DNA of 11,934 nt from Leptolyngbyaceae cyanobacterium (lineage in GTDB: Bacteria; Cyanobacteriota; Cyanobacteriia; Phormidesmidales; Phormidesmidaceae). The DNA is taken from assembly GCA_965263355.1 (NCBI GenBank), contig CBDHHL010000044.1, positions 1 through 11,934 of the forward strand, in the 5' to 3' direction. This document shows, in pieces, positions 305 to 11,934 of this stretch (its first letter is position 1; every line of letters begins with the position of its first letter). The position numbers and the translations under genes were made by a program. The notes beneath the pieces were generated by a model. It searched no databases. It was not told where the DNA came from and saw only the letters and a list, made by a program, of their open reading frames with translations.

Positions 305-1489
305 TCACGTATCCAACCTTAATTTACTTCCCAAGTTTGACAGACCATTGCCTGATAGAGCTTCTGTTTCTTCTCCACTAAACCATTTACGGTTGAGTTG
401 TTGTAGAAAGCCCTGCTGCTGGTATACCAAAATTAACTGATCGATGCCTTCTAAGAGATTTGTGTCATTTTCCCGGACGGCGATGCCGTACCCTTCACTC
501 GTTAACAATGTACCGGCTAACTTAAACGAGTCAGGATTCAGATTAACAAAGTGACGTAATACAGGAGCATCCTGCACTAAACCCTTAATTACTCCATCTT
601 CCAATGCAGTAACGGCGGTTTCAAACGTTGGATAGGTTAACAACTCCACAGGTTGACTCCTTAAAAAGCCTTCTCCTGTAGTACCCGTTAAAGCACCTAT
701 CGGCTCCCCCCTGAGGGCGGTCAAATCCAGCTCATTTTCGCTCAGCTGATACACAGTTAATGACGCAATAAAGTCCGCTACAATGAAGAAACTGAGGCCC
801 ATCCATAGGGTAGCAATCAAACGACCGGCAAATTTTGTCGGTGTAACATCGCCATAGCCAAAGGTGCCTAACGTAACTACAGCAAACCAAATTCCCTGAC
901 TGACTCCTTGAATCGGATTGCCTGAAAAATGAGCATTATGCTTACGTTCTGCTAGCCAGATTAAACTACCTACAAGCGTACTACTACCAAATATTACACA
1001 GATAGAGCGTAGATGACGCCAATTCAGCATATTGCTAGCAAAAGTGGCCATAGTCGTTTCAGGCTTAGCCACCATCAACTGCAGGCCTGATTGATAAAAC
1101 GGATATGAAAAATCTAAGCCCTCGGCTTCTCGTTGCGCGGTGACTGAAATACCGGCAATAGCGACATCTACTTCACCGGTTTTTAGACCAGTCAGCAGAG
1201 CCGTAACCGATGGATAGGTGACCCATTCCGTTTCTATCACTAGATCATCAGCGATACTTTGCCAAAGGTCGATACTGTAACCATAAGGCGGTGTAGATGG
1301 TTTCAAGGACACAAAGGGCGGCAGTTCTTTTGTCCCAACACGAATCACTGACCTGGGTTGGCCTGGACGTATGGGCAACGCCTGAAATGCTTGTGACTCA
1401 GACGTTTGCATTGATTGACTAAAAATCGATAAGGGAGCTAACCATAGCCCTATGGTAGTTACAAGCAATGCACCAATGGGTCTGAACAT
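305..1489 (-). CDS. GluR0-like amino-acid (glutamate)-gated potassium channel: SBP family 3 ligand-binding domain split by an Ion_trans_2 pore
   Basis: 394 aa. N-terminal signal-like segment; S1 lobe (VGTKELPPFV, GYSIDLW, DVAIAGISVTAQRE, DFSYPFYQSGL); TM1; pore helix and filter WFAVVTLGTFGYGD; TM2; S2 lobe (GTTG, VQDAPVL, YGIAV, LNRKWF). S1-M1-P-M2-S2 is the prokaryotic GluR0 architecture. Confidence 0.88.
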   Translation of the reverse strand: MFRPIGALLVTTIGLWLAPLSIFSQSMQTSESQAFQALPIRPGQPRSVIRVGTKELPPFVSLKPSTPPYGYSIDLWQSIADDLVIETEWVTYPSVTALLTGLKTGEVDVAIAGISVTAQREAEGLDFSYPFYQSGLQLMVAKPETTMATFASNMLNWRHLRSICVIFGSSTLVGSLIWLAERKHNAHFSGNPIQGVSQGIWFAVVTLGTFGYGDVTPTKFAGRLIATLWMGLSFFIVADFIASLTVYQLSENELDLTALRGEPIGALTGTTGEGFLRSQPVELLTYPTFETAVTALEDGVIKGLVQDAPVLRHFVNLNPDSFKLAGTLLTSEGYGIAVRENDTNLLEGIDQLILVYQQQGFLQQLNRKWFSGEETEALSGNGLSNLGSKLRLDT

Positions 1490-1768: not shown

Positions 1769-2668
1769 CTATAAGGTGCAGCAATCGACGAATGGCAGTT
1801 GGGCAAAATCTTCGAGATCAACTGACTCTAGTAGGCTATACCAATCGTTAGCAAGGTTAATATTGTCAGGATCTGCTCGATAAAGCTGACCTAATAGGGT
1901 AACGGCTTCTTGCCAAAGACCATTGCGAGCATATATGACAGCCTGGTCCCGAGGGCTAGCTTCAGCCAGAGGTAGACGTAAGTCTGGATCTAAGGGGACC
2001 CGCTCAATTGTTCCAGAGACATCCTGAAAATCATCGGCATCATCTTCAACGAGCAAAAGCCATTTATAGCGGTTATTCATTTGGAGTGCTAGTGGTAAGG
2101 TTACCTGCACGATACCCATACCACTAGCACTATTGATGGATACGTTGGCTTGGTAAAGCTGTTTTTCGTCTTCATCACTCAAGGTAAATTCTAAGGTAAT
2201 AGCATCCAGGTCATAGGGAATGTAAAACCAAAGGGTCGGTCTATCTTGGGTAGTCAGGCTTAGGACTGACTCGTAGGTATTAGTAACTAACCCTTCTGAG
2301 TTACTTTCAAAGGGGGTATGGGTCGCTGGTGTGAGAGCAGTCAGAGTGACTACACAAGTCCCTTGGCTATTGCCATTGTCTAGACTCTCGTTACCCGCTG
2401 AATGGTTGTTATCTTCTAGGCAACCTCGGCTACCCCCACCTCTACGTCCAGGGGGGGCTCCCCGATCCGCCAAAATAGGGGCATTGTAGTTGTAAGCCAC
2501 TTCTCCAATTGCATCTACCGAGAGAACGCTTAGCTCAGCTAGCCCTTGCTGAGTAGACGCTGGATTCTCGTCAGCCGATTCAGCCTGTACGCTGGTTGTA
2601 GAGAGCAGGGCCGTCGAACAGACAAAGGCACTGCTCAGTAGATAAGAAAGCATATGAGATAATTTCAT
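1769..2668 (-). CDS. DUF928 domain-containing exported protein
   Basis: 299 aa with a signal peptide (…SVQA|ES), the RGAPPGRRGGGSRG motif, RPTLWFYIPY, YARNGLWQEA and a C-terminal PFVDCC, all typical of cyanobacterial DUF928 proteins. Its start overlaps the upstream stop (ATGA, 2665-2668). Confidence 0.85.
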   Translation of the reverse strand: MKLSHMLSYLLSSAFVCSTALLSTTSVQAESADENPASTQQGLAELSVLSVDAIGEVAYNYNAPILADRGAPPGRRGGGSRGCLEDNNHSAGNESLDNGNSQGTCVVTLTALTPATHTPFESNSEGLVTNTYESVLSLTTQDRPTLWFYIPYDLDAITLEFTLSDEDEKQLYQANVSINSASGMGIVQVTLPLALQMNNRYKWLLLVEDDADDFQDVSGTIERVPLDPDLRLPLAEASPRDQAVIYARNGLWQEAVTLLGQLYRADPDNINLANDWYSLLESVDLEDFAQLPFVDCCTL

Positions 2669-5103
2669 GGGACCTCTTTCGTCATTGTGTTTGTTTGAGA
2701 CAACCTCAAATGTTCAGTTATAGGGATGCTACTGGCGATGGTCAATAATAGAATTGCTGGAGGAACCCAGGGCACCCAATAATGAGACTTGACAAGTAGT
2801 AACCCACAGATGCCCAATAGACCTAATTCTGTTCCCAATAGGGTGAATACCCAATAAGTGATGCCATGGCGGTAGGTTTTGCCAAGACTGAACATGGTCA
2901 GGATAATGATCAGGCTACCCAGACATCCCCACAACACAATCCAAAGAGTCTCACCCCATTCTGGCCAAGTTTTTAATAATGGCCGATTATCTAAAACTGC
3001 GCTGAGAAGATGACTGATCATTTGAGCTTGCAAAAATACCCCGCTGGTTTGATGTTCCACCCTGGGGCTTTGGCTATAGGGGGTGAGCCAATAATCGCCA
3101 AAACTTTTGTCGGTGGTGCCAATTAAGACAATGCGATCGCGAATTAACGCTGGTGACACCTTCCCTTCCCGTAGGTCAGTGAGGGTAACGTGTTGAGCAA
3201 TTTGATCGGGACTATCTAGCCGACGATAATTTAATAATAGCTGATGGCCCCAGGCTTCGATACCCCGATAGCCACCTTCGTTGGTTTCGATGGGAGTAAA
3301 AATAAGATTACCCAGTTGTAAATAACCTTCGGGGGAAGCCTGAATCGTCACCTTTTCTGCTGAGAGATAGCTAAAGGCCAATTTTGCACTTAAACTATGG
3401 GTCGCTAGACAGGAGGAAGCAGGATCTGGAGTTAGGGCCAACAGCTGTCGTCGCAAGACTCCATCCGCATCGGCAATAAAATCACTAAACCCAATTCTGT
3501 CTTCAGGCACTTCGGGGGGTGGTGCAATACCATCACTGTTGGCTTGAGCATCACGACTCTTGCAGATAGTAACAAGCTCATTATGGGCTGTCAGCTGTTC
3601 AGCTAATTCAGGGAAGCTAGACAAGACTGGAAAATCTCGATAAATATCTAAGCCAATTACCCGAGGTTCCATCGTTTCTAAGTGTTTCAAACTGTCTAAT
3701 AACGCTTGATCTGAGAGAGACCCACGGGGCTGTTCATCCTTTTGAGCCTGAACATCTTTTTCTGTAATCTTAACCACCACCAGACGAGGGTCAGGCAACT
3801 CTTTAGAACGCATTTTTATAAAGCTGTCGAAGGCTTTTAACTCCAGCCCCTGAAATAGACCCATGTAGCGAAGACCAATAATTGCGATAGTGAACACAGC
3901 ATGGGTAAGCAACATTAAACCAGGTCTAGGAACAGGCGGAGGTGGCGGTGGCAACGGTGGCACCTGCGGTGACAGTTGGATGAATTCATGCCACAGGGGG
4001 GGACTATGGGCCGGATTTTGATAGATGGTAGGAAGCCAAGAGGCACAGGGGAATATATCTTCTAACCCTTGTAACTTCTCTCGCGCTTCTCTCATTGCTA
4101 AATATAACGTCTCTCCCCGAGAAAAGGCTTCTAAAAAGGCTTTTAGAAATGTGTGGGCTACTCGATCAGACACCACTTCTTGCATCACAAGAATTTGGGG
4201 AATTTGTAAATCTGCCAGGGATTGGGCTAACCCGAGCCCATCACAAGAGTTAAAAATGGCAACCTTAAGCCCCCGTGCCAAGGCCGTTTGTAACGCATTT
4301 TTAAGTTGAGGAATGGTAATGACATCGGTTGAACTAATGTGCAAGAGTCCAGTTGAATTGTTCTTATTTGCAGGCGATGAACTCACTTGTTTCCAGTCTG
4401 CCTGGCTAGAGCTATGGCCTGCGAAAAATAATATATCCCAGCCTTGGGTGTCCCAGAGATGGGTATCCAGGGTTTGGCGGTCGGGTTCTGTTAAACAATG
4501 GATGTCTGTGTTGGGTAAATGATTGAGCAATGCTAAATCTGTTTCAATGTCTAACCCCTGACTATCGCCTAATACGGCTAAAATACGGACCTGATTTCGA
4601 GTTTTGGTAACGGCAGGAGTCCTTTTTTCATAAATAGGGGCGCTAAGGGCAATTTCCAGGTGGGGATAGCGATCGCAAATATCCCACCGATGCCAGGGGA
4701 GACGCTGCACAATATCCTGTTGAGTTTGCACAATTAACCGAATGGTATCGTTTGGACTCAATTGCTCCAACAGCTTGTCTTGGACAGGACGAAATGACTC
4801 TGCACGTAACCATTGGTTAAAGGCCCGTTGCAGCTTTTCAGCCAGGTCATAACAGTCTTCTACATAGGACACATTAGTAGCAAACCCGGTTGAACTCTTG
4901 CCCAGCCGAAAAGGCCCAGGGCCACTTAATTGGCGATAAGCGACCTGCCATTGCTGATAATGCGATCGCAAGTCTGGTGCAGCAGGTAAGTGGCCTATAA
5001 CTTCAGTGATGGGTATCTCGTTTTCATAGCCAACTTGTAGGTTCACCGAAAAGCCAGTGCCTAAACTACCATCATTTAGTTTTAAGGTGACACGCTTATC
5101 CAT
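2665..5103 (-). CDS. CHAT (caspase-like protease) + CHASE2 transmembrane sensor protein
   Basis: 812 aa. N-terminal CHAT region with LPWHRWD, WDILFFAGHS (His230) and AIFNSCDG (Cys287); proline linker; TM; CHASE2 motifs (LELKAFD, DPRLVVVKITEKD, PRVIGLDIYRD, GFSDFIADADGVLRRQLL, DRIVLIG, GVFLQAQMISHLL); three C-terminal TMs and no further cytoplasmic domain. Confidence 0.9.
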   Translation of the reverse strand: MDKRVTLKLNDGSLGTGFSVNLQVGYENEIPITEVIGHLPAAPDLRSHYQQWQVAYRQLSGPGPFRLGKSSTGFATNVSYVEDCYDLAEKLQRAFNQWLRAESFRPVQDKLLEQLSPNDTIRLIVQTQQDIVQRLPWHRWDICDRYPHLEIALSAPIYEKRTPAVTKTRNQVRILAVLGDSQGLDIETDLALLNHLPNTDIHCLTEPDRQTLDTHLWDTQGWDILFFAGHSSSQADWKQVSSSPANKNNSTGLLHISSTDVITIPQLKNALQTALARGLKVAIFNSCDGLGLAQSLADLQIPQILVMQEVVSDRVAHTFLKAFLEAFSRGETLYLAMREAREKLQGLEDIFPCASWLPTIYQNPAHSPPLWHEFIQLSPQVPPLPPPPPPVPRPGLMLLTHAVFTIAIIGLRYMGLFQGLELKAFDSFIKMRSKELPDPRLVVVKITEKDVQAQKDEQPRGSLSDQALLDSLKHLETMEPRVIGLDIYRDFPVLSSFPELAEQLTAHNELVTICKSRDAQANSDGIAPPPEVPEDRIGFSDFIADADGVLRRQLLALTPDPASSCLATHSLSAKLAFSYLSAEKVTIQASPEGYLQLGNLIFTPIETNEGGYRGIEAWGHQLLLNYRRLDSPDQIAQHVTLTDLREGKVSPALIRDRIVLIGTTDKSFGDYWLTPYSQSPRVEHQTSGVFLQAQMISHLLSAVLDNRPLLKTWPEWGETLWIVLWGCLGSLIIILTMFSLGKTYRHGITYWVFTLLGTELGLLGICGLLLVKSHYWVPWVPPAILLLTIASSIPITEHLRLSQTNTMTKEVP
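3133..4969. repeat. Three HIP1 octamers (GCGATCGC) at 3133-3140, 4669-4676 and 4962-4969
   Basis: Exact palindromic octamers seen in the sequence; HIP1 is a cyanobacterial genome signature. Confidence 0.8.
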
Positions 5104-5112
5104 TCACCCGCC

Positions 5113-6153
5113 TTAGACGATAAATTGTTCCGAATGGTAGATATCTTCCAATTTAAGCTGAGTTGTAAAGGGCTCACCCAGTTTGCCCGTAAACTGTAGC
5201 TGAATGTAATTATCGGCTTGCCGCGCTTGAGCTTGCATAAACACCTCCCCAGATCCATCTATGATCAACAATTCTAAATCTGGAGGTAAACAAGGTTGGT
5301 CAACCGGATAAGCTTGCACGCTGATGTGAATTTCATCCATCGTCTGAGATTGTAAGCGGATCAACAGTAAAACCCGTTGCATTCCTAGTCGCACAGCCAG
5401 GTTAAGCAGTTTACCTCTATGCACACTCGCCCCAGTCTCTTCAGTCAATTGGCTACTGAGAGGACGTTGGTGATCAAATTCAGAACTTTGAGGGTCAGGG
5501 CCCCTATGACTGAATGCGGGGGTTAAGCTGACCGTACCTAAGAGTTCTTCAAGGGTTTGCCAGCCATTGTCACTAGCATCGACAATACTATCAAACCAAT
5601 GACTCAGGGTTGCCAAGGGGCTACGATTCGCTTCCGTTTGGAGGCTAGCTGGCACTGGCGTTAAGCTATGAAGATGATCAATCAGCTCTTCTGGAGGCTT
5701 GAGATCGCTTAGTGCCAGGGTTTCATTGGTAACGTTTGAGGTAAACCCCAACAATCGGGCCGTTTGTAAATCTTCACTCAATTCCACTACGCTATAGCCT
5801 ACCCGCAATGCCCATGTTTCAGGCGGAACAGCACAAGTCGTTGAGGGTGCGTATGTAGGGCGACATTCTAATCGTCCCATACCAGGGAGGACTAGATCGG
5901 CCACATCAGCCATCAGTTGTACCGCCGGATTCCAGCTATCACTACTGACCAAATCAGTTGCAATTTCTAGCATCTGGCAATAATCATTCATTGCCCAAAC
6001 GGCTAGCGTATTGGCGTACACCTGTCTGGCTTTGGCTACCGATGGTTGCTTGGCCGCAAATTGCTCTGCCTGCTCATGCGCCTCTGCTGTAATTGGCAAC
6101 GGCACGGCCATGGCATAAATCTTATCTAAACTCTTGCTCATAATAATCCCCAT
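5113..6153 (-). CDS. DUF1822 family protein (candidate anti-sigma/adaptor)
   Basis: 346 aa (alternative ATG at 6141). Family motifs: QVYANTLAVWAMNDY, SDSWNP, ADLVLPGMGRLECRP, VPPETWALRVGY, ARLLGF, TLSHWF…GWQTLEELL, and C-terminal LPPDLELLIID…DNYIQLQFTGKLGEPF. Ends 9 nt before the CHAT-CHASE2 start. Confidence 0.85.
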   Translation of the reverse strand: MGIIMSKSLDKIYAMAVPLPITAEAHEQAEQFAAKQPSVAKARQVYANTLAVWAMNDYCQMLEIATDLVSSDSWNPAVQLMADVADLVLPGMGRLECRPTYAPSTTCAVPPETWALRVGYSVVELSEDLQTARLLGFTSNVTNETLALSDLKPPEELIDHLHSLTPVPASLQTEANRSPLATLSHWFDSIVDASDNGWQTLEELLGTVSLTPAFSHRGPDPQSSEFDHQRPLSSQLTEETGASVHRGKLLNLAVRLGMQRVLLLIRLQSQTMDEIHISVQAYPVDQPCLPPDLELLIIDGSGEVFMQAQARQADNYIQLQFTGKLGEPFTTQLKLEDIYHSEQFIV

Positions 6154-6201
6154 TCTTTTGCACAGTGACAGCTTATTTAGTGTGTTTCGGTATTGGTTTC
6201 G

Positions 6202-6837
6202 TTATAAATAGCCTTGATTTTGGCCAAATTCTCGCAAGAGGGGCATGCACTGACGCTGATAAAAGCTGGCTAAAGTACCAATAGAGACATTTAAATCTGC
6301 TGCCAATACTTTCCAAGGCGCTTCAGGGGGCAATCGTCTTAAAATCAACAAGCGGGCAGTAATATTGGGATGACCCAAAATATGAATCTGTTGAAGTCGC
6401 GGGTCTGTCTCAGCCCACTGTTTCACGTCCTGTAACATTGGTGGAATATCAGGTTTAGCCTCTAATAGATCAATTGGGTCAGTAGGGGGATTGTCTCCCA
6501 TTAGATTAAATAGAGGTTTTGCCTTTTGCTTGTTTTCGGTTGTTTTAGCAATGTACTTATCTTGTAAACGACGTTTCAAGTAAGCGTTTAACCAAGTGAT
6601 AAGACTAGCTTTTTGTGGATCGTAAACTTTGCCAGTTTTGGCTTCACATAGATTTTGACAAAAGTAAATCCAGGTCTGCTGCAAAGCGTCTTGATAATAG
6701 GAGACGTTTTCATTCCAAAGTTTATCTGACACCAGCCGAATGATTTGGGTCAAACGCTTTTGGCGTTGAGCACTCCCTATTCGGTGACGACACGCGTCAG
6801 CAATTAGGGCTTGAATATGTTCCTGGAAGTTGTCCAT
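6202..6837 (-). CDS. Atypical small sigma-70 family (ECF-like) RNA polymerase sigma factor
   Basis: About 211 aa (ATG 6837; in-frame TTG at 6840). Region-2-like segment YYQDALQQTWIYFCQNL…YDPQKASLITWLNAYLKRRLQD and a C-terminal region-4-like HTH PWKVLAADLNVSIGTLASFYQRQC. First gene of the operon. Confidence 0.75.
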   Translation of the reverse strand: MDNFQEHIQALIADACRHRIGSAQRQKRLTQIIRLVSDKLWNENVSYYQDALQQTWIYFCQNLCEAKTGKVYDPQKASLITWLNAYLKRRLQDKYIAKTTENKQKAKPLFNLMGDNPPTDPIDLLEAKPDIPPMLQDVKQWAETDPRLQQIHILGHPNITARLLILRRLPPEAPWKVLAADLNVSIGTLASFYQRQCMPLLREFGQNQGYL

Positions 6838-6880
6838 CAAAAATTATCACTCGTTACAAGGAGCAATAGTTAGCGACCTC

Positions 6881-6917
6881 TACATAACCTATCAGAGGTA
6901 ATCACAAAAATCATGCA
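6881..6917 (-). promoter_or_regulatory. Variant of the repeated bipartite promoter-like motif, upstream of the sigma gene
   Basis: Minus strand reads TGCATGATTTTTGTGATTACCTCTGATAGGTTATGTA. TGCA and TGATAGGTTA sit at the same 23-nt offset as in three of the four plus-strand copies; the site ends 43 nt before ATG 6837. Confidence 0.5.
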
Positions 6918-7009
6918 TCAGGCAGCGCTATACATAAAAATCAGCATATCTCCTACCTATTAAATGAAAAACAGCCCATAGCAGGTGATTAGCACAATAT
7001 TTGAGCTAC

Positions 7010-7046
7010 TGCAAAAAAGCTGAAATTTGCCCTGATAGATCAATAG
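7010..7046 (+). promoter_or_regulatory. Bipartite promoter-like motif, copy 1
   Basis: TGCAAAAAAGCTGAAATTTGCCCTGATAGATCAATAG, ending 127 nt upstream of ATG 7174. Confidence 0.75.
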
Positions 7047-7173
7047 GAGGCTTAGACGCTGAATTTATTGATGTTGCCTGTATGCTTCTAACCCAGATGA
7101 ATACAAACCATGGTTGCTTCAATATTACTTAATACATTCAATATTACTGAATACGAACAATGAGCAATAAACG

Positions 7174-7446
7174 ATGAAAAAGGCACGTTATTTAATTTTA
7201 CTAGGTTTCTTTGTTCCCATTATAGGTATAGGCCTGATTGCAGCCTTTATTATGCCTATTTCAATGAATTTAGGGATTTTCCTAAGTTATTTTCTAAGAC
7301 TAACTTCTTTAGTTGTCTTTACTTGGGGATGCGTAGAGTTAGCTAAGGCTAAAGGCTACCATCCGATGTGGGGAGTCTTAGGACTAGGGCTATTGTGGGG
7401 CTTATTAGCTCTTATTCTTTTACCTACAAAAAAGAAAATACGTTGA
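7174..7446 (+). CDS. Small hypothetical membrane protein (about 3 TM)
   Basis: 90 aa with a basic N-terminus, three hydrophobic stretches, a LAKAKGY…WG.LGL…LILLP motif and a basic C-terminus. Confidence 0.7.
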   Translation: MKKARYLILLGFFVPIIGIGLIAAFIMPISMNLGIFLSYFLRLTSLVVFTWGCVELAKAKGYHPMWGVLGLGLLWGLLALILLPTKKKIR

Positions 7447-7489
7447 ATTCTCCTTGAAGTATAAAAGAAAAAAATATTATTTACCAGCA

Positions 7490-8005
7490 ATGACTAAACG
7501 ACAGTCCTTGAATAACTCTAAAAAACTCACTTATTGTCCTATTTACCAATCCTTGGGACGCTTTGTTTTTCTGTTGGCAATTACCTGTGGAACCTACGGT
7601 CTTTATTGGCATTATAAACATTGGTACTGTTTTGGCTATCGTAGATTTAGTGCAGTTTGTTTCACGCTCTTTAGTCCCCTAACAATTTCAGGTCTTGCCA
7701 GACATATTTTTCAATTAGCAAACGATAAAGGGATTAAGGTAGGGATTGAACCTAAAATTTTCTTACTTGCTTATTTTATAGGCAATATTATCTCTTCTCA
7801 AGGGCCAGGACTTTGGTCGCTGTTAGGGCTATTGATGATCGTATTACCAATGCTCTACATGCAACATTGTCTGAACCTTTACTGGGTGCAACAACAGCCT
7901 CAGTGCCAGAAAAGCCTTTTTCTATCTGCAGAAGTCGTGGGTTGGTCAGTTTTAGGCGTAGGGATTTGGATGAGCAGTTTAACAAGTGACATGGGGGCTC
8001 TCTGA
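7490..8005 (+). CDS. DUF4234-like integral membrane protein
   Basis: The ORF track starts at TTG 7454; the in-frame ATG at 7490 is more likely. Motif LLAITCGTYGLYWHYKHW, several TMs, then MQHCLNLYW. Confidence 0.65.
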   Translation: MTKRQSLNNSKKLTYCPIYQSLGRFVFLLAITCGTYGLYWHYKHWYCFGYRRFSAVCFTLFSPLTISGLARHIFQLANDKGIKVGIEPKIFLLAYFIGNIISSQGPGLWSLLGLLMIVLPMLYMQHCLNLYWVQQQPQCQKSLFLSAEVVGWSVLGVGIWMSSLTSDMGAL

Positions 8006-8035
8006 CGTTAGCAATATATTAAAATTCAAGATAAT

Positions 8036-8072
8036 TGCAAAAAAATTGAAATCTTACCTGATAGGTCAATAG
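8036..8072 (+). promoter_or_regulatory. Bipartite promoter-like motif, copy 2
   Basis: TGCAAAAAAATTGAAATCTTACCTGATAGGTCAATAG, 31/37 identical to copy 1, ending 61 nt upstream of ATG 8134. Confidence 0.75.
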
Positions 8073-8250
8073 ACAGATTCAAAAGGCCAAATAAGGTTGA
8101 GCCAGGATGTGATATTGACCCAGGTATTTAACGATGATGAACAATAAGGTTTTCCATATTAATCAAATGTCTACTGTTCAAGTGGCTAACCAGTTAAAAA
8201 AGCTGAAGCTAGAAACAATGCTCAGCATTGCTGATGTTTACTACTATGCT

Positions 8251-8258
8251 AATATCTT
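8251..8258. repeat. IS66 target-site duplication, left (AATATCTT)
   Basis: Identical to 9887-9894 and directly abuts GTAA. Confidence 0.93.
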
Positions 8259-8324
8259 GTAAGCTTTCAGCGGGTCTAAGTTTTGAGAGGTCTCAAGAAG
8301 CCGAGTACCTGGTAGAGTAAGCCT

Positions 8325-9869
8325 ATGAAAGATAAGGCTCTCCCATCGATACCCACAGTCAGCGAAGCGGACTGGGAAAAGACACCGTCCAGCGTTAAGA
8401 CGTTGGTTCTGAGTCTAGTGACAAGAGTCGAGGAATTGGAGAACCAGTTCGAAGAACTGCGAGCAGAAAATACTCAACTACGCGCAGAAAATACTCAACT
8501 ACGCGCAGAAAATGAATTGCTCAAAGAGAAGCTGCAGCGCAATAGTCAGAACTCATCTCAGCCACCATCGGAGGATAAAGCCAAAGGATTTAAGCCGAAG
8601 AAACCTCGCAGTGGTCGCTCGCGAGGAGGCCAACTCGGACATCCGGGGAAAGGGCCGAAGCTATATCCACCGGAGGCGTGTGCCCGCATCGACCACTATT
8701 ATCCAAGCCACTGTCATCACTGTGGGGAGGCGTTATCAGGAGAGGACCCCAGTCCCTATCGAGTGCAAAAAGTAGACGTACCCCAGATAAAACCAGTTGT
8801 CGTCGAGCATCGATTTCACCAGTTAGCGTGTGAGTGCTGTGGGGCGTTGACACGGGGCTGGGACGAAGGGGTGATCAACACTCCGAGATATGGCGAACGG
8901 CTGACGGGATTGGTGGGGTGGCTTAGCAGTGTCGGTCATCAGTCCCATGGGCAGGTGAAGGACCTGTTGTGTGAGGTGTTTGATATCGAGATATCAACGG
9001 GAGGCATCAATCGTCTGCGGATGGAGTTGTCAGAGTCATTGTCAGCCATCGTGGAGAGTGCGGGGGAGTATATTCAGCAACAAGCCCAGGTGAACATGGA
9101 TGAGACGGGCTTTCGCCAAGGGAATGGGGATGGGAAAAATCCCCAGAAAAGTAAAGGGTGGTTGTGGGTTGTGGTGACCCCGTTAGTGAGCTATTTCTCG
9201 GTATTTCTGTCTCGCTCACAGGGGGTAGCCAAAGAGATGTTGGGTGACGCCTTCGGTGGCATTGTGGGCAGTGACCGATGCGGGGCCTATAGTTGGTTAG
9301 GCAATGCCCAACGACAAGTCTGTTGGGCTCATCTCAAACGAGATTTCACCAAAATCGCTGAACGCTCAGGGCGATCCACTAAATTGGGAAAGGCCCTGCT
9401 CAAACAACAAAAGCGATTGTTTGAGCGTTGGTATCAGGTCCGAGATGGAACCCTACCTCGAGGCGATTTTATCGAGCAGGTCAAGCCGATTCGGTGTGAA
9501 CTCAGGCGATTGCTTAATGAAGGAGCCGATTACGAGATTGAAAAAGGCGATAAGACCTCGTTCGCTAAGACGGTTCGCACCTGTCGGAAACTGCTCACCG
9601 TTGAGCCAGCTTTCTGGACCTTTGTCGAGCATGACGGGGTAGAACCCACCAATAATGCGGCGGAGCGTGCCCTGCGCCCTGCGGTCTTGTGGCGTAAACA
9701 GAGTTTTGGAGCCAATAGCCAAGAGGGGAGTCAGTTTGTGGCCCGGATGATGACTACCGTCACCAGCTTAAAGGCCCAGCAACGTTCAATTTTTGACTTC
9801 CTGAGCGATGCCGTAAAAGCTTCTCGTCATGGTTCTCCTGTGCCTTCATTGATACCTGAAGGAGACTGA
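8325..9869 (+). CDS. tnpC: IS66 family DDE transposase
   Basis: 514 aa. Leucine zipper, NSQNSSQPPSED, RGGQLGHPG, zinc finger CHHCG…CECCG, and catalytic motifs MDETG, SDR, QVCWAHLKRDF, PTNNAAERALR. Confidence 0.96.
   Translation: MKDKALPSIPTVSEADWEKTPSSVKTLVLSLVTRVEELENQFEELRAENTQLRAENTQLRAENELLKEKLQRNSQNSSQPPSEDKAKGFKPKKPRSGRSRGGQLGHPGKGPKLYPPEACARIDHYYPSHCHHCGEALSGEDPSPYRVQKVDVPQIKPVVVEHRFHQLACECCGALTRGWDEGVINTPRYGERLTGLVGWLSSVGHQSHGQVKDLLCEVFDIEISTGGINRLRMELSESLSAIVESAGEYIQQQAQVNMDETGFRQGNGDGKNPQKSKGWLWVVVTPLVSYFSVFLSRSQGVAKEMLGDAFGGIVGSDRCGAYSWLGNAQRQVCWAHLKRDFTKIAERSGRSTKLGKALLKQQKRLFERWYQVRDGTLPRGDFIEQVKPIRCELRRLLNEGADYEIEKGDKTSFAKTVRTCRKLLTVEPAFWTFVEHDGVEPTNNAAERALRPAVLWRKQSFGANSQEGSQFVARMMTTVTSLKAQQRSIFDFLSDAVKASRHGSPVPSLIPEGD
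8463..8513 (+). repeat. 21-bp tandem repeat (about 2.4 exact copies) in the transposase leucine zipper
   Basis: GCAGAAAATACTCAACTACGC at 8463-8483 and 8484-8504, plus GCAGAAAAT at 8505-8513; encodes AENTQLR AENTQLR AEN. Confidence 0.93.
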
Positions 9870-9894: not shown

Positions 9895-10122
9895 TGACTT
9901 ACATCAGCCTCTATTTCCTTGGAGCTTTCCTGAATCCAGGAATCCCTCTAGATAGGGAAAGTTTATCTTCAAAGTCGCGCATAAATTTTTTTCTATATAA
10001 GGTTTTCTAGTTTTCCCTCGATTCGCTGGCATCCTCCTGATTTTACAGGGGGGTGCCTTTTCTTTTAATTGACTCTTTTCATAGGTAAAAACTGCCAACT
10101 TTCAAAAAAGATTGGAGATGAT

Positions 10123-10158
10123 TGCAAAAAAAACCAACCTTAACTGATGAGTTAATAG
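10123..10158 (+). promoter_or_regulatory. Bipartite promoter-like motif, copy 3
   Basis: TGCAAAAAAAACCAACCTTAACTGATGAGTTAATAG (spacer 1 nt shorter), ending 66 nt upstream of ATG 10225. Confidence 0.7.
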
Positions 10159-10224
10159 GGCAACTTATAAAACCCTTAATAACAAAGTTGCTCAAAAAAT
10201 GTGAAACAATACGAGGATAAAGTC

Positions 10225-11511
10225 ATGAGTGGCTCATTTAACAGCATTAATGGGGACAACAATGCCAACAATATTACTGGCACCAACCGTAAAGATTTTA
10301 TTCGTGGGTTTGGCGGTAATGATACGATTTGGGCAGGAGCGGGTGATGATCTTGTCGATGGTGGTACTGGGAACGATACCCTTAGGGGCGAATCTGGCAA
10401 TGACCAGCTTAATGGACAAAATGGTAATGACCTAATCTTAGGCGGCAATGGTAATGATAGGCTTTTTGGAGGTGATGGTAACGATAGAATAGCAGGAGGG
10501 TTTGGCAACGATTATCTTGTCGGAGGTCGTGGCGGCAATGATTTTATGGCCGGTCAACAGGGCAATGACACCTATGTTGTTCTTGACTCGAATGATAAAG
10601 TGACCGAATTTTCAGGCCATGGGACTGACCTGGTGCGGAGTTTTATTCCTACCTATAGGCTGACAGCTAATGTTGAGAACCTTACATTGGCAGGCTCAGC
10701 CGTTCAGGGGTATGGTAATGGCTTGAATAATAGAATTATTGGGAATAGTGGCAACAATATCCTCTTTGGTGAAGGTGGCCGAGACTTTTTGAACGGTGGT
10801 CGTGGTGCTGATCGCATGTATGGTGGTGCCCATAACGACACTTACATGGTGGATAACAAGGGCGATAGAGTTTTTGAGTCTCGTAATCAAGGTTATGACC
10901 GTGTATTTTCGACTGTTGGATTCACTCTAGGAAACAATATAGAGGAACTAACCCTGAGGGGTACTGCATACCTAGGCTATGGAAATAACCTAAACAACAG
11001 AATTGATGGCAACAACTCTGCCAACCATCTGTGGGGGGCCGCTGGCAACGATACCATTTTTGCCAACGGCGGCAATGATCTAGTTCGTGGGGGCATTGGT
11101 AATGACTACTTACATGGTGGTAGAGGCAACGATGAATTAGTCGGCGGTAGTGGCAATGATACCTTAGTAGGGATTGCAGGCAATGACATCTTGATCGGTG
11201 ATGCGGGAGCAGATAAGTTTACATTCTTCAAATTCACCGATGGTGTTGACCAGATCAAAGACTTTTCGAGAGGACAAGGGGATAAGATTGAGGTTGTGGC
11301 TGCAGGCTTTGGAGGTGGCCTGGCGAAAGGAGTATTATCTAGCGATCAGTTTGTCTTAGGCTCTAGTGCACATGATGCGAATGATCGGTTCCTCTATAAC
11401 AATGGCGTCCTATCGTTTGACAGGGATGGTATTGGTGGGGCATCGGCTGTCCGAATCGCAACATTTAGTGGTAATCCCACATTGACCCACAGCGATATTG
11501 TTGTGATTTAG
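10225..11511 (+). CDS. RTX (hemolysin-type) calcium-binding protein, probable type I secretion substrate
   Basis: Many GGxGxDxLx nonapeptides, two related DTY.V…VE.LTL.G…GYGN.LNNRI.GN modules 90 codons apart, and a C-terminal DQIKDFSRGQGDKIEV…LTHSDIVVI tail. ATG 10225 follows GAGGA (10213-10217), so it is preferred to GTG 10201. Confidence 0.92.
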   Translation: MSGSFNSINGDNNANNITGTNRKDFIRGFGGNDTIWAGAGDDLVDGGTGNDTLRGESGNDQLNGQNGNDLILGGNGNDRLFGGDGNDRIAGGFGNDYLVGGRGGNDFMAGQQGNDTYVVLDSNDKVTEFSGHGTDLVRSFIPTYRLTANVENLTLAGSAVQGYGNGLNNRIIGNSGNNILFGEGGRDFLNGGRGADRMYGGAHNDTYMVDNKGDRVFESRNQGYDRVFSTVGFTLGNNIEELTLRGTAYLGYGNNLNNRIDGNNSANHLWGAAGNDTIFANGGNDLVRGGIGNDYLHGGRGNDELVGGSGNDTLVGIAGNDILIGDAGADKFTFFKFTDGVDQIKDFSRGQGDKIEVVAAGFGGGLAKGVLSSDQFVLGSSAHDANDRFLYNNGVLSFDRDGIGGASAVRIATFSGNPTLTHSDIVVI

Positions 11512-11635: not shown

Positions 11636-11719
11636 CATATGATACCAAATCCGAATTTCCCGACTTAAATTGATATCCAACATTTGCACAGTTAGATGCC
11701 AAAAATAATTTTGGGATAG

Positions 11720-11756
11720 TGCAAAAAAGTTAAGAGTTTACTTGATAAGTCAATAG
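11720..11756 (+). promoter_or_regulatory. Bipartite promoter-like motif, copy 4
   Basis: TGCAAAAAAGTTAAGAGTTTACTTGATAAGTCAATAG, ending 81 nt upstream of ATG 11838. Confidence 0.75.
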
Positions 11757-11837
11757 AGCTTATGTTGCCCATTTTTTATCTACGCCTATTTTCAATTATT
11801 CAAAACTTTGACCTCTTCGACTTAAAGGAAAAAACTC

Positions 11838-11934
11838 ATGGCTACAATTAATGGCACTCCCTTTAATGACAACAATACTGTTAATGGCGTTCCTCTCATT
11901 TTTCGTTCAGCATTGGTAGGTACTCCGTTGAATG
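11838..11934 (+). CDS. 5' part of a probable second RTX/calcium-binding protein (runs off the window)
   Basis: AAGGA (11825-11829) then ATG; reads MATINGTPFNDNNTVNGVPLIFRSALVGTPLN…; I.GT..ND starts are typical of cyanobacterial RTX proteins. Confidence 0.65.
   Translation, partial: MATINGTPFNDNNTVNGVPLIFRSALVGTPLN

Follow-up and report, generated by a model that had tools for sequence, protein, structure and literature searches.

What do four adjacent cyanobacterial genes do together when they encode a protein matched by no family model, a DUF1822 protein, a receptor that joins a caspase-like CHAT domain to a CHASE2 sensor domain, and a DUF928 protein? The genes lie on contig CBDHHL010000044.1 (assembly GCA_965263355.1) of a Leptolyngbyaceae cyanobacterium; the whole stretch analysed, here called the window, is 11,934 nucleotides (nt) long, and all coordinates refer to it. 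An initial annotation of this DNA had read the genes as a cascade in which the receptor's protease cuts the DUF1822 protein and frees a sigma factor. With a little more belief than doubt, we read the operon as a protease-gated sigma switch, in which the DUF1822 protein would be the clamp and the CHAT-CHASE2 protein the cutter. The four genes are:

6202..6840, minus strand: divergent sigma-like protein of the extracytoplasmic function (ECF) type, 211 or 212 residues, assigned by its predicted fold
5113..6153, minus strand: DUF1822 protein, 346 residues (Pfam, E = 2.7e-71)
2665..5103, minus strand: receptor, 812 residues, with a conserved N-terminal region, CHAT and CHASE2 domains and four transmembrane (TM) helices
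1769..2668, minus strand: DUF928 protein, 299 residues (Pfam, E = 4.1e-43); its start overlaps the receptor stop by 4 nt

Pfam agrees with the annotation on the DUF1822, CHAT plus CHASE2, and DUF928 assignments. The list of open reading frames (ORFs) also bears out the co-oriented arrangement: read in order on the minus strand (6840..6202, 6153..5113, 5103..2665, 2668..1769), the genes are spaced by 48 nt, 9 nt and a 4-nt overlap (-4). Between positions 1400 and 7250 there is one terminator-like site, against a chance expectation of 5.5. The linkage was followed in 80 loci retrieved with the sigma alignment, all of them cyanobacterial, in which relatives of the four proteins were located. The DUF1822 gene immediately follows the sigma gene in 66 of the 74 loci that have at least 1200 nt downstream. 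The order sigma-DUF1822-CHAT/CHASE2 is found in 54 of 64 (at least 3800 nt downstream) and the complete four-gene order in 37 of 55 (at least 5500 nt downstream). The linkage on which the annotated cascade depended is therefore conserved, and the four-gene arrangement is not a product of chance. Among the variants, the DUF928 gene lies divergently upstream in three loci and the arrangement is inverted in one.

The identity of the first protein had to be sought in its fold. The protein, 212 residues long from a TTG at 6840 or 211 from the ATG at 6837 (the form in the protein database), matched no Pfam or NCBIfam family at E ≤ 0.1, and phmmer found no match to it in the PDB. It has 859 homologues of similar length, some with the NCBI name 'sigma-70 family'. 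A profile built from 24 relatives had a sole match in the PDB, the ECF factor SigE (2q1z, E = 0.5), colinear across both domains. The AlphaFold (AF2) model, built with 24 relatives, has a predicted local distance difference test score (pLDDT) of 78 and consists of two helical domains and a low-confidence linker. In a Foldseek search of the PDB, the top rows for this model were almost all ECF sigma factors, none of them at E ≤ 1e-3. Fold comparison with VIA-align, which covered 48,161 chains, gave Z scores of 9.8 to 7.5 for the sigma2 fold, led by SigW (Z 9.8, root-mean-square deviation (rmsd) 2.6 over 88 residues, 20% identity) and SigC (Z 8.7, rmsd 2.1 over 82 residues) and followed by region 2 of sigmaE (Z 8.6) and SigK (Z 8.5). 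The values for the sigma4 fold are moderate, from 6.3 to 5.1, with region 4 of SigR (Z 6.3, rmsd 2.1 over 64 residues), SigL (6.1) and DNA-bound region 4 of sigmaE (5.8) at the top. We accept the protein, on its modelled fold, as a very divergent ECF-type sigma factor: it fails the test by sequence models and passes that by fold. What the annotation called 'sigma-like' thus stands as a predicted sigma2/sigma4 fold and falls as a match to Pfam or NCBIfam sequence models. The 30-residue linker between the two domains carries a conserved D-P-I-D...P-D-I-P-P pattern, in which D120, P121, P129, D130 and P132 are nearly invariant and the model confidence is low.

The DUF1822 protein has no TM segment by hydropathy, in agreement with its earlier description as soluble. 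Its AF2 model (pLDDT 85) has a confident alpha+beta N-domain (residues 1-165), a disordered linker (167-240) and a beta-sandwich (243-345). We rejected the possibility that it is a TPR protein, as no TPR is seen in this model. A Foldseek search of the PDB with the model returned nothing at E ≤ 1e-3, a sequence search found no solved relative, and a protein-atlas search with the N-domain gave no usable match. The C-domain has generic Ig/macroglobulin-like fold matches. The fold matches of the N-domain (residues 39-167) are all PD-(D/E)xK nucleases, with Z values of 9.0 to 6.0 that rise only slightly above the usual VIA-align background of 7-8: I-Ssp6803I (9.0), Hjc (8.3 and 7.5), D212 (7.2), NhoI (6.8) and DpnI (6.0). 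The invariant residues D86 and E96-C97-R98 are located on successive strands, where a D...(D/E)xK motif would be expected, with an arginine in place of the lysine.

When sigma and DUF1822 were modelled together, the complex scored 0.90 in 3 of 3 runs and the best of 3 controls scored 0.14. In calibration, 116 of 157 solved complexes passed the mark for this score, as did 2 of 215 mismatched pairs; these counts apply only approximately here, our own alignments having been used. The partner pLDDT is 75-76, and at least 90% of the contacts agree among the runs. Since DUF1822 has no solved relative, this result is not the recall of a similar complex. All contacts on the DUF1822 side come from residues 15-162, which lie on sigma2 (20-61) and sigma4 (132-211) at once and include the sigma4 helix 186-208. 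Contact with sigma2 and sigma4 together is the anti-sigma geometry that blocks both core binding and promoter recognition. On the sigma side, 32 of the 51 interface residues are conserved, compared with 48 of the 160 others (p = 5e-5). The modelled complex, a check that the annotation had called for, supports binding: the DUF1822 N-domain is predicted to grip both sigma domains, as anti-sigma factors do. DUF1822 is therefore placed, as the sigma's predicted binding partner, among the likely anti-sigma factors. In RseA/sigmaE and RsiW/SigW, the anti-sigma factor, a membrane protein bound between sigma2 and sigma4, undergoes proteolysis in response to an envelope signal, and the sigma factor autoregulates its operon. 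The window sigma counts SigW/RsiW and sigmaE/RseA among its best fold matches. Unlike RseA and RsiW, the candidate anti-sigma here is soluble, and the caspase-like protease domain forms one protein with the sensor.

Two observations on the sigma protein may be added. Cysteines 16, 60, 64 and 197 are invariant in 24 of 24 relatives; C60 and C197 fall within the predicted DUF1822 interface, and DUF1822 itself has invariant C97 and C107. A metal or redox site at these cysteines is possible. In P0121, an 824-residue protein from a cyanobacterial metagenome-assembled genome (MAG), an SAV_2336 N-terminal domain (NF041121, E = 5e-114) precedes the sigma-like domain. This is the only longer or fused form of the sigma protein found, and the fusion is not with DUF1822; it indicates that a different kind of sensor or adaptor can be coupled to the sigma module.

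DUF1822 genes recur within genomes, with 2, 7, 3, 10, 3, 20, 14 and 14 matches in the eight genomes searched. The last three (G006-G008, the genomes of loci L071, L023 and L034) belong to large filamentous cyanobacteria; in them most of the retrieved DUF1822 loci have a sigma-type gene directly upstream and a CHAT gene downstream, and the copies represent a large paralogous expansion. Across the eight genomes, the gene upstream of the extra copies encodes either the 212-residue type or a protein of ~400 residues. The latter proteins match the sigma70-ECF model TIGR02937 (E = 1e-27 to 1e-37) and Pfam Sigma70_r2/r4; hhalign found no similarity between the 212-residue sigma profile and two of these paralogues. 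The CHAT protein downstream of DUF1822 may bear CHASE2 or a STAND NTPase. In one locus (L098) CHAT is fused to an nSTAND1 NTPase in place of CHASE2, and in another (L082) the sigma and DUF1822 genes are followed by a gene for a FecR-domain protein. In two more (L089 and L094) the N-terminus of a STAND NTPase is joined to the C-terminal half of DUF1822; the next gene encodes a CHAT-CHASE2 protein in L089, and the fusion lies at the contig end in L094.

In DUF1822 proteins that accompany ~400-residue sigmas or are fused to STAND NTPases, the subfamily profile of the window DUF1822 aligns to positions 170-330 only. Therefore, the N-domain varies with the sigma factor, and the linker motif and beta-sandwich are constant, as is CHAT. 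This constant half is the part that a constant protease would recognise. The linker contains a conserved W..GWQ..F-R motif that includes Arg217 (...A-F-x-F-R-S...). Arg217 is conserved as arginine in 35 of the 37 family members aligned, which cover all subtypes, and is followed by a hypervariable, disordered stretch. By analogy with a related protease described below, it is a candidate cut site.

In the receptor, Pfam places CHAT at residues 202-374 (E = 1.4e-12) and CHASE2 at 404-730 (E = 4.9e-63). The catalytic dyad had been assigned to H230 and C287, and these are the right residues, invariant in 30 of 30 aligned relatives. Residues 1-170 are also conserved across the 30 relatives. By hydropathy, one TM helix precedes CHASE2 (396-414) and three follow it (716-795). 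This layout puts the N-terminal 395 residues, including CHAT, in the cytoplasm and CHASE2 on the outside, in accordance with the cytoplasmic protease and extracytoplasmic sensor of the initial annotation. The DUF928 protein begins with a hydrophobic leader in translation, from which it appears to be exported.

A related protease has been studied in Anabaena PCC 7120, where the CHAT protease HetF cleaves PatU3 after Arg117 (Xing et al., PNAS 2022; PMC9457339). PatU3, whose gene lies downstream of the sigma-HetZ gene and is co-transcribed with it, inhibits sigma-HetZ and cross-links to its sigma4 domain and to two of its insertions (Hu et al., PNAS 2026; PMC13342950). The cascade proposed for the window resembles this switch, in which a CHAT protease cuts the inhibitor of an ECF-type sigma factor after an arginine and the inhibitor is encoded directly behind the sigma factor. 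The window CHAT domain is, by sequence comparison, homologous to that of a HetF orthologue: hhalign gave a probability of 97.8% (E = 7e-13, 26% identity over 226 columns), and both have the same GHS and FNSC motifs.

The two systems also differ. By the published accounts hetF is unlinked to hetZ-patU, whereas the window protease lies within the operon, and the HetF orthologue has no CHASE2 by Pfam, unlike the window receptor. Sigma-HetZ is a 401-residue protein with three insertions that reads TCCGGA / TGnA promoters (PMC13342950), whereas the window sigma has 211 residues, a 30-residue linker and another motif. We rejected the receptor as a HetF equivalog, since it scores 14.8 bits against NF045509, with a cut-off of 1200, and only CHAT aligns. 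The ~400-residue sigmas linked to DUF1822 (18 genes) were likewise rejected as HetZ orthologues, with at most 6 of 15 named sigma-HetZ residues matching. No HetZ-named NCBIfam model matches the DUF1822-linked sigmas. In the heterocystous genome G006 there are just 8 such sigmas of full length, and every one lies beside a DUF1822 gene. The 120 best of 2249 DUF1822 matches carry only the name 'DUF1822 family protein' and never PatU, and the term 'DUF1822' is absent from the accessible text of the two Anabaena papers (PMC9457339, PMC13342950). Names, NCBIfam models, residue fingerprint and G006 thus give no evidence of orthology.

In published descriptions, signal-activated proteases also cut partners of ECF-like sigmas in the Csx29 (TPR-CHAT)/Csx30/RpoE and CalpL/CalpT/CalpS systems. 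Csx29, like the window receptor, is a CHAT protease, whereas CalpL is of the Lon type. The CRISPR and Calp triggers are described as RNA or cyclic oligoadenylate, whereas the proposed trigger here would act at an extracytoplasmic CHASE2. Neither a cas-like family among the window's 9 ORFs (Pfam) nor a repeat array in the window was seen. Csx30 is not among the DUF1822 fold matches listed, rows in which the N-domain is barely sampled.

These elements can be put together as follows. The DUF1822 N-domain would keep the divergent sigma factor inactive by holding sigma2 and sigma4. A signal at CHASE2 would lead the CHAT domain of the membrane receptor to cut DUF1822, whose constant C-terminal half, the linker motif and beta-sandwich, would be the part that the protease recognises. 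We propose that the cut falls after Arg217 in the disordered linker because the homologous protease HetF, also of the CHAT type, cuts PatU3 after an arginine. The freed sigma factor would then read TGCAgAA-N15-CTGATAGgT promoters, raising expression of its own operon and activating genes for exported or membrane proteins, RTX-repeat proteins among them. The exported DUF928 protein, translationally coupled to the receptor, may be a co-sensor or a ligand-binding partner at CHASE2.

The promoter assignment comes from a two-box motif with the consensus TGCAgAA-N15-CTGATAGgT. Its copies in the window, scored with a position weight matrix (PWM), and the RTX gene are:

6877..6920, minus strand: motif, TGCATGA-N15-CTGATAGGT..., 36 nt upstream of the sigma start; regular-expression match at 6916, PWM 37.4
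7007..7050, plus strand: motif copy of repeat family D3, PWM 31.5, facing away from the operon
8033..8076, plus strand: motif copy, PWM 33.9, preceding a 42-codon ORF that ends at an IS66-type insertion
10120..10158, plus strand: weak motif variant upstream of the RTX gene, core match with 1 mismatch
10201..11511, plus strand: gene for an RTX calcium-binding repeat protein, 436 residues (HemolysinCabind, E = 2e-58)
11717..11760, plus strand: motif copy, PWM 18.9, upstream of an ORF starting at 11838

The copy at 6877..6920 is, by its sequence and place, the likely promoter through which the operon would be autoregulated. The copy at 7007..7050 precedes two small ORFs (7174-7446 and 7454-8005), both encoding proteins with TM segments. 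A repeat search recovered a plus-strand family of ~45 nt at 7000-7046, 8026-8072 and 11710-11756, with a variant at ~10120-10158. The RTX gene of the window is likely a member of the regulon.

Searched in the 80 loci, the exact pattern gave 0 matches; looser patterns then matched. The expression GCA..A-N14-16-CTGATA[GA] occurs 43 times in 1.07 Mb of loci, compared with 0-7 times in 20 shuffles, and stands on the same strand 37-110 nt upstream of the sigma gene in 19 of the 80. With the PWM, for which the cut-off in upstream windows was the 99th percentile of 800 control windows and the listing threshold was 15, the motif was found upstream of the sigma gene, at a distance of 25-113 nt, in 37 of the 80 loci; 18 of these are among the 61 loci that did not serve for training. 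Further copies precede DUF928 genes (L027, L046, L047, L057 and L079) and neighbouring genes. Pfam was run on 28 motif-preceded ORFs. Eleven encode RTX-repeat proteins, three of them with serralysin parts; among the rest, which include unnamed proteins, are 1 two-partner-secretion (TPS) exoprotein, 2 ShlB/FhaC transporters, 2 PPC proteins, 1 PPIase and 2 GerE regulators. Among non-cassette genes of at least 100 residues, RTX genes account for 9 of 21 preceded by the motif and 14 of 505 others (Fisher p = 2e-8, a kind of value that overstates the support here, the related genomes being non-independent samples). Regular expression, PWM and Pfam thus uphold the annotated motif as one shared by RTX and membrane-protein genes and by the sigma gene itself.

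Much of this gene set has been catalogued before. In a computational survey of EACC2-caspase neighbourhoods, Kaur, Iyer, Burroughs and Aravind (eLife 2021; PMC8195603) described proteins in which a constant N-terminal alpha+beta domain, 'EACC2', and a caspase domain are followed by a variable C-terminus, for example CHASE2 with TM helices. Adjoining genes encode an ECF sigma and DUF1822, and they proposed stimulus-induced autopeptidase activation with the sigma as output. The window shares, as far as the accessible text of the survey goes, the same gene set, the caspase-type His and Cys, the CHASE2 sensor and the adjacent sigma and DUF1822 genes. No EACC2 model was returned by the libraries that we searched with the receptor. 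In the same text DUF1822 is called a 'TPR protein', whereas our model contains no TPR; autoproteolysis is proposed and DUF1822 is given no anti-sigma role; and DUF928, the promoter motif and an RTX regulon find no mention. The initial annotation therefore overstated the novelty of the cascade: the gene set and the protease-to-sigma reading are in PMC8195603, and a route from CHAT through an inhibitor to an ECF-type sigma outside CRISPR, which it had presented as new, is reported as tested in Anabaena with HetF-PatU3-HetZ (PMC9457339, PMC13342950). Our literature search found no bench study of the four-gene cassette. The operon is a well-supported member of a catalogued, bench-untested system and a testable candidate pathway, not a new kind of system. 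To the accessible content of the survey and the Anabaena papers, our analysis adds the predicted sigma2/sigma4 clamp geometry and the nuclease-like fold of the N-domain. It further adds the modular make-up of DUF1822, whose N-domain varies and whose C-terminal half is constant, the candidate site at Arg217 and the RTX enrichment behind the motif.

Several points weigh against the protease-gated switch. CHAT cleavage of DUF1822 is proposed by analogy with HetF, CHAT:DUF1822 and CHASE2:DUF928 contacts are putative, and the role of CHASE2 and DUF928 in sensing is a proposal only. Cleavage within the linker would not by itself take the N-domain off the sigma; an extra degradation step would be needed. 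Conserved residues are not enriched on the DUF1822 side of the interface (10 of 42, compared with 31 of 123 elsewhere; p = 1), and the DUF1822 fold matches listed contain no helical domain of the class I anti-sigma type, most rows covering the C-domain only. The order sigma-CHAT-DUF928 without an intervening DUF1822 gene occurs in 3 of 64 loci (L016, L017 and L032); the genome of L016 is an incomplete MAG in which only DUF1822 fragments were found. DUF1822 is thus not always encoded in the cassette. Sigma and DUF1822 genes stand without CHAT in three loci, and the sigma gene stands alone in five. No motif copy precedes the sigma gene in 43 of the 80 loci, and the sigma would be tied to the motif by position alone. 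The variant before the window RTX gene has a spacer one base shorter and a mismatch in the second box and falls below PWM 15. The non-independence of the related genomes counts on the same side. With these points taken into account, the cascade of the initial annotation is still the best reading of the locus; it passes every in-silico test applied, and its cleavage and sensing steps are putative.

Some of the same facts would suit a different role for DUF1822. It could be an adaptor or scaffold that recruits the sigma to the receptor or aids its function, with the caspase protein processing itself on a stimulus and the sigma being switched by membrane release or by processing of some other component. 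In PMC8195603, 'autopeptidase activation' is indeed proposed with the ECF sigma as the last step. A constant C-module with a variable N-domain is adaptor-like, the interface shows no excess of conserved residues on the DUF1822 side, and some cassettes do without DUF1822. However, the predicted contact spans sigma2 (20-61) and the sigma4 helix 186-208, and in known sigma/anti-sigma pairs such contact blocks core binding (textbook knowledge); a partner gene directly after the sigma gene is the anti-sigma gene order. The tested analogue PatU3 is, moreover, reported as an inhibitor of sigma-HetZ (PMC13342950). We consider the adaptor role rather unlikely.

The nuclease-like fold raises the thought that the cassette is a conflict system as understood in PMC8195603, for defence against invaders or programmed death, in which the caspase would unleash a DUF1822 nuclease and the sigma would add a transcriptional response. 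The PD-(D/E)xK nucleases are the best matches of the N-domain, its D86 and E96-C97-R98 are invariant on successive strands, and up to 20 paralogues per genome with variable sensors, STAND NTPases included, are a pattern of conflict systems. Yet the Z values lie near the tool background, an arginine replaces the lysine, and the neighbours marked by the promoter motif are genes for exported RTX, TPS and protease proteins, not for defence. In the window Pfam showed neither phage nor defence genes, a dedicated defence search with PADLOC not having been made. We give this role a slim chance. An improbable alternative, to a similar degree, is that CHAT cuts another target (the sigma linker, DUF928 or an unlinked protein, such as one of cell division) and that sigma and DUF1822 form a separate pair. 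CHAT:DUF1822 contact is putative, the linker of the sigma has the nearly invariant D120, P121, P129, D130 and P132, and HetF is reported to have a second functional link, to cell division (PMC9457339). Against this, DUF1822 and CHAT keep their adjacency from one subfamily to another, through changes of sigma type or sensor, and the C-terminal half of DUF1822 persists beside CHAT even with a foreign N-terminus (L089 and L094).

If the protease-gated switch is correct, two widespread DUFs acquire functions, DUF1822 an anti-sigma role and DUF928 a role as a sensor partner. A sigma family of 859 relatives, invisible to the Pfam and NCBIfam models searched, would be recognised, and the logic of the single HetF-PatU3-HetZ case would extend to a family with 2-20 DUF1822 matches per genome in eight genomes. 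RTX-repeat proteins, serralysin-like proteases and TPS proteins would be its likely products, and with such outputs the pathway may govern surface remodelling or neighbour interaction of filamentous cyanobacteria. A bolder extension, which we put forward tentatively and hold to be possible but distinctly doubtful, is that DUF1822 is a class of modular anti-sigma factors with an N-terminal clamp resembling a restriction endonuclease and a constant handle for CHAT that is cut after Arg217. This would be a mode of regulation used across cyanobacteria, with HetF-PatU3-HetZ as an offshoot and the window copy controlling RTX secretion on an envelope signal. Were it true, a major unrecognised mode of cyanobacterial signalling with interchangeable sensors (CHASE2, STAND NTPase and FecR-type) would come into view. 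The window offers handles for testing: the promoter motif, H230 and C287, the R217 candidate site and the predicted interface.

Several further features of the locus may be recorded. The ORF at 11838..11933 (plus strand, open at its 3' end) starts 78 nt after the last motif copy with MATINGTPFNDNNT...; it may encode another repeat-type exoprotein and is too short to judge. An IS66-family transposase gene at 8325-9869 (NF033517, E = 9e-85) lies between the motif copy at 8033-8076 and the RTX gene. The stop codon of the 42-codon ORF (8135-8262) is formed at the sequence GTAAGC, which we take to be a possible IS66 end, and the element may have cut a motif-driven gene. Near an orphan sigma gene in one of the retrieved loci (L026:13075-14916, minus strand) lies a gene for a 613-residue protein with a GerE/sigma4-like helix-turn-helix, TIR and AAA_35, a defence-like architecture as judged from its domains. 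At the other end of the window, a 394-residue protein encoded at 305-1489 (minus strand) combines SBP_bac_3 with an Ion_trans_2/Lig_chan pore, the domain composition of a GluR0-type ligand-gated channel. A weak partial copy of the motif is located at ~1656-1696, between this channel gene and the DUF928 gene.

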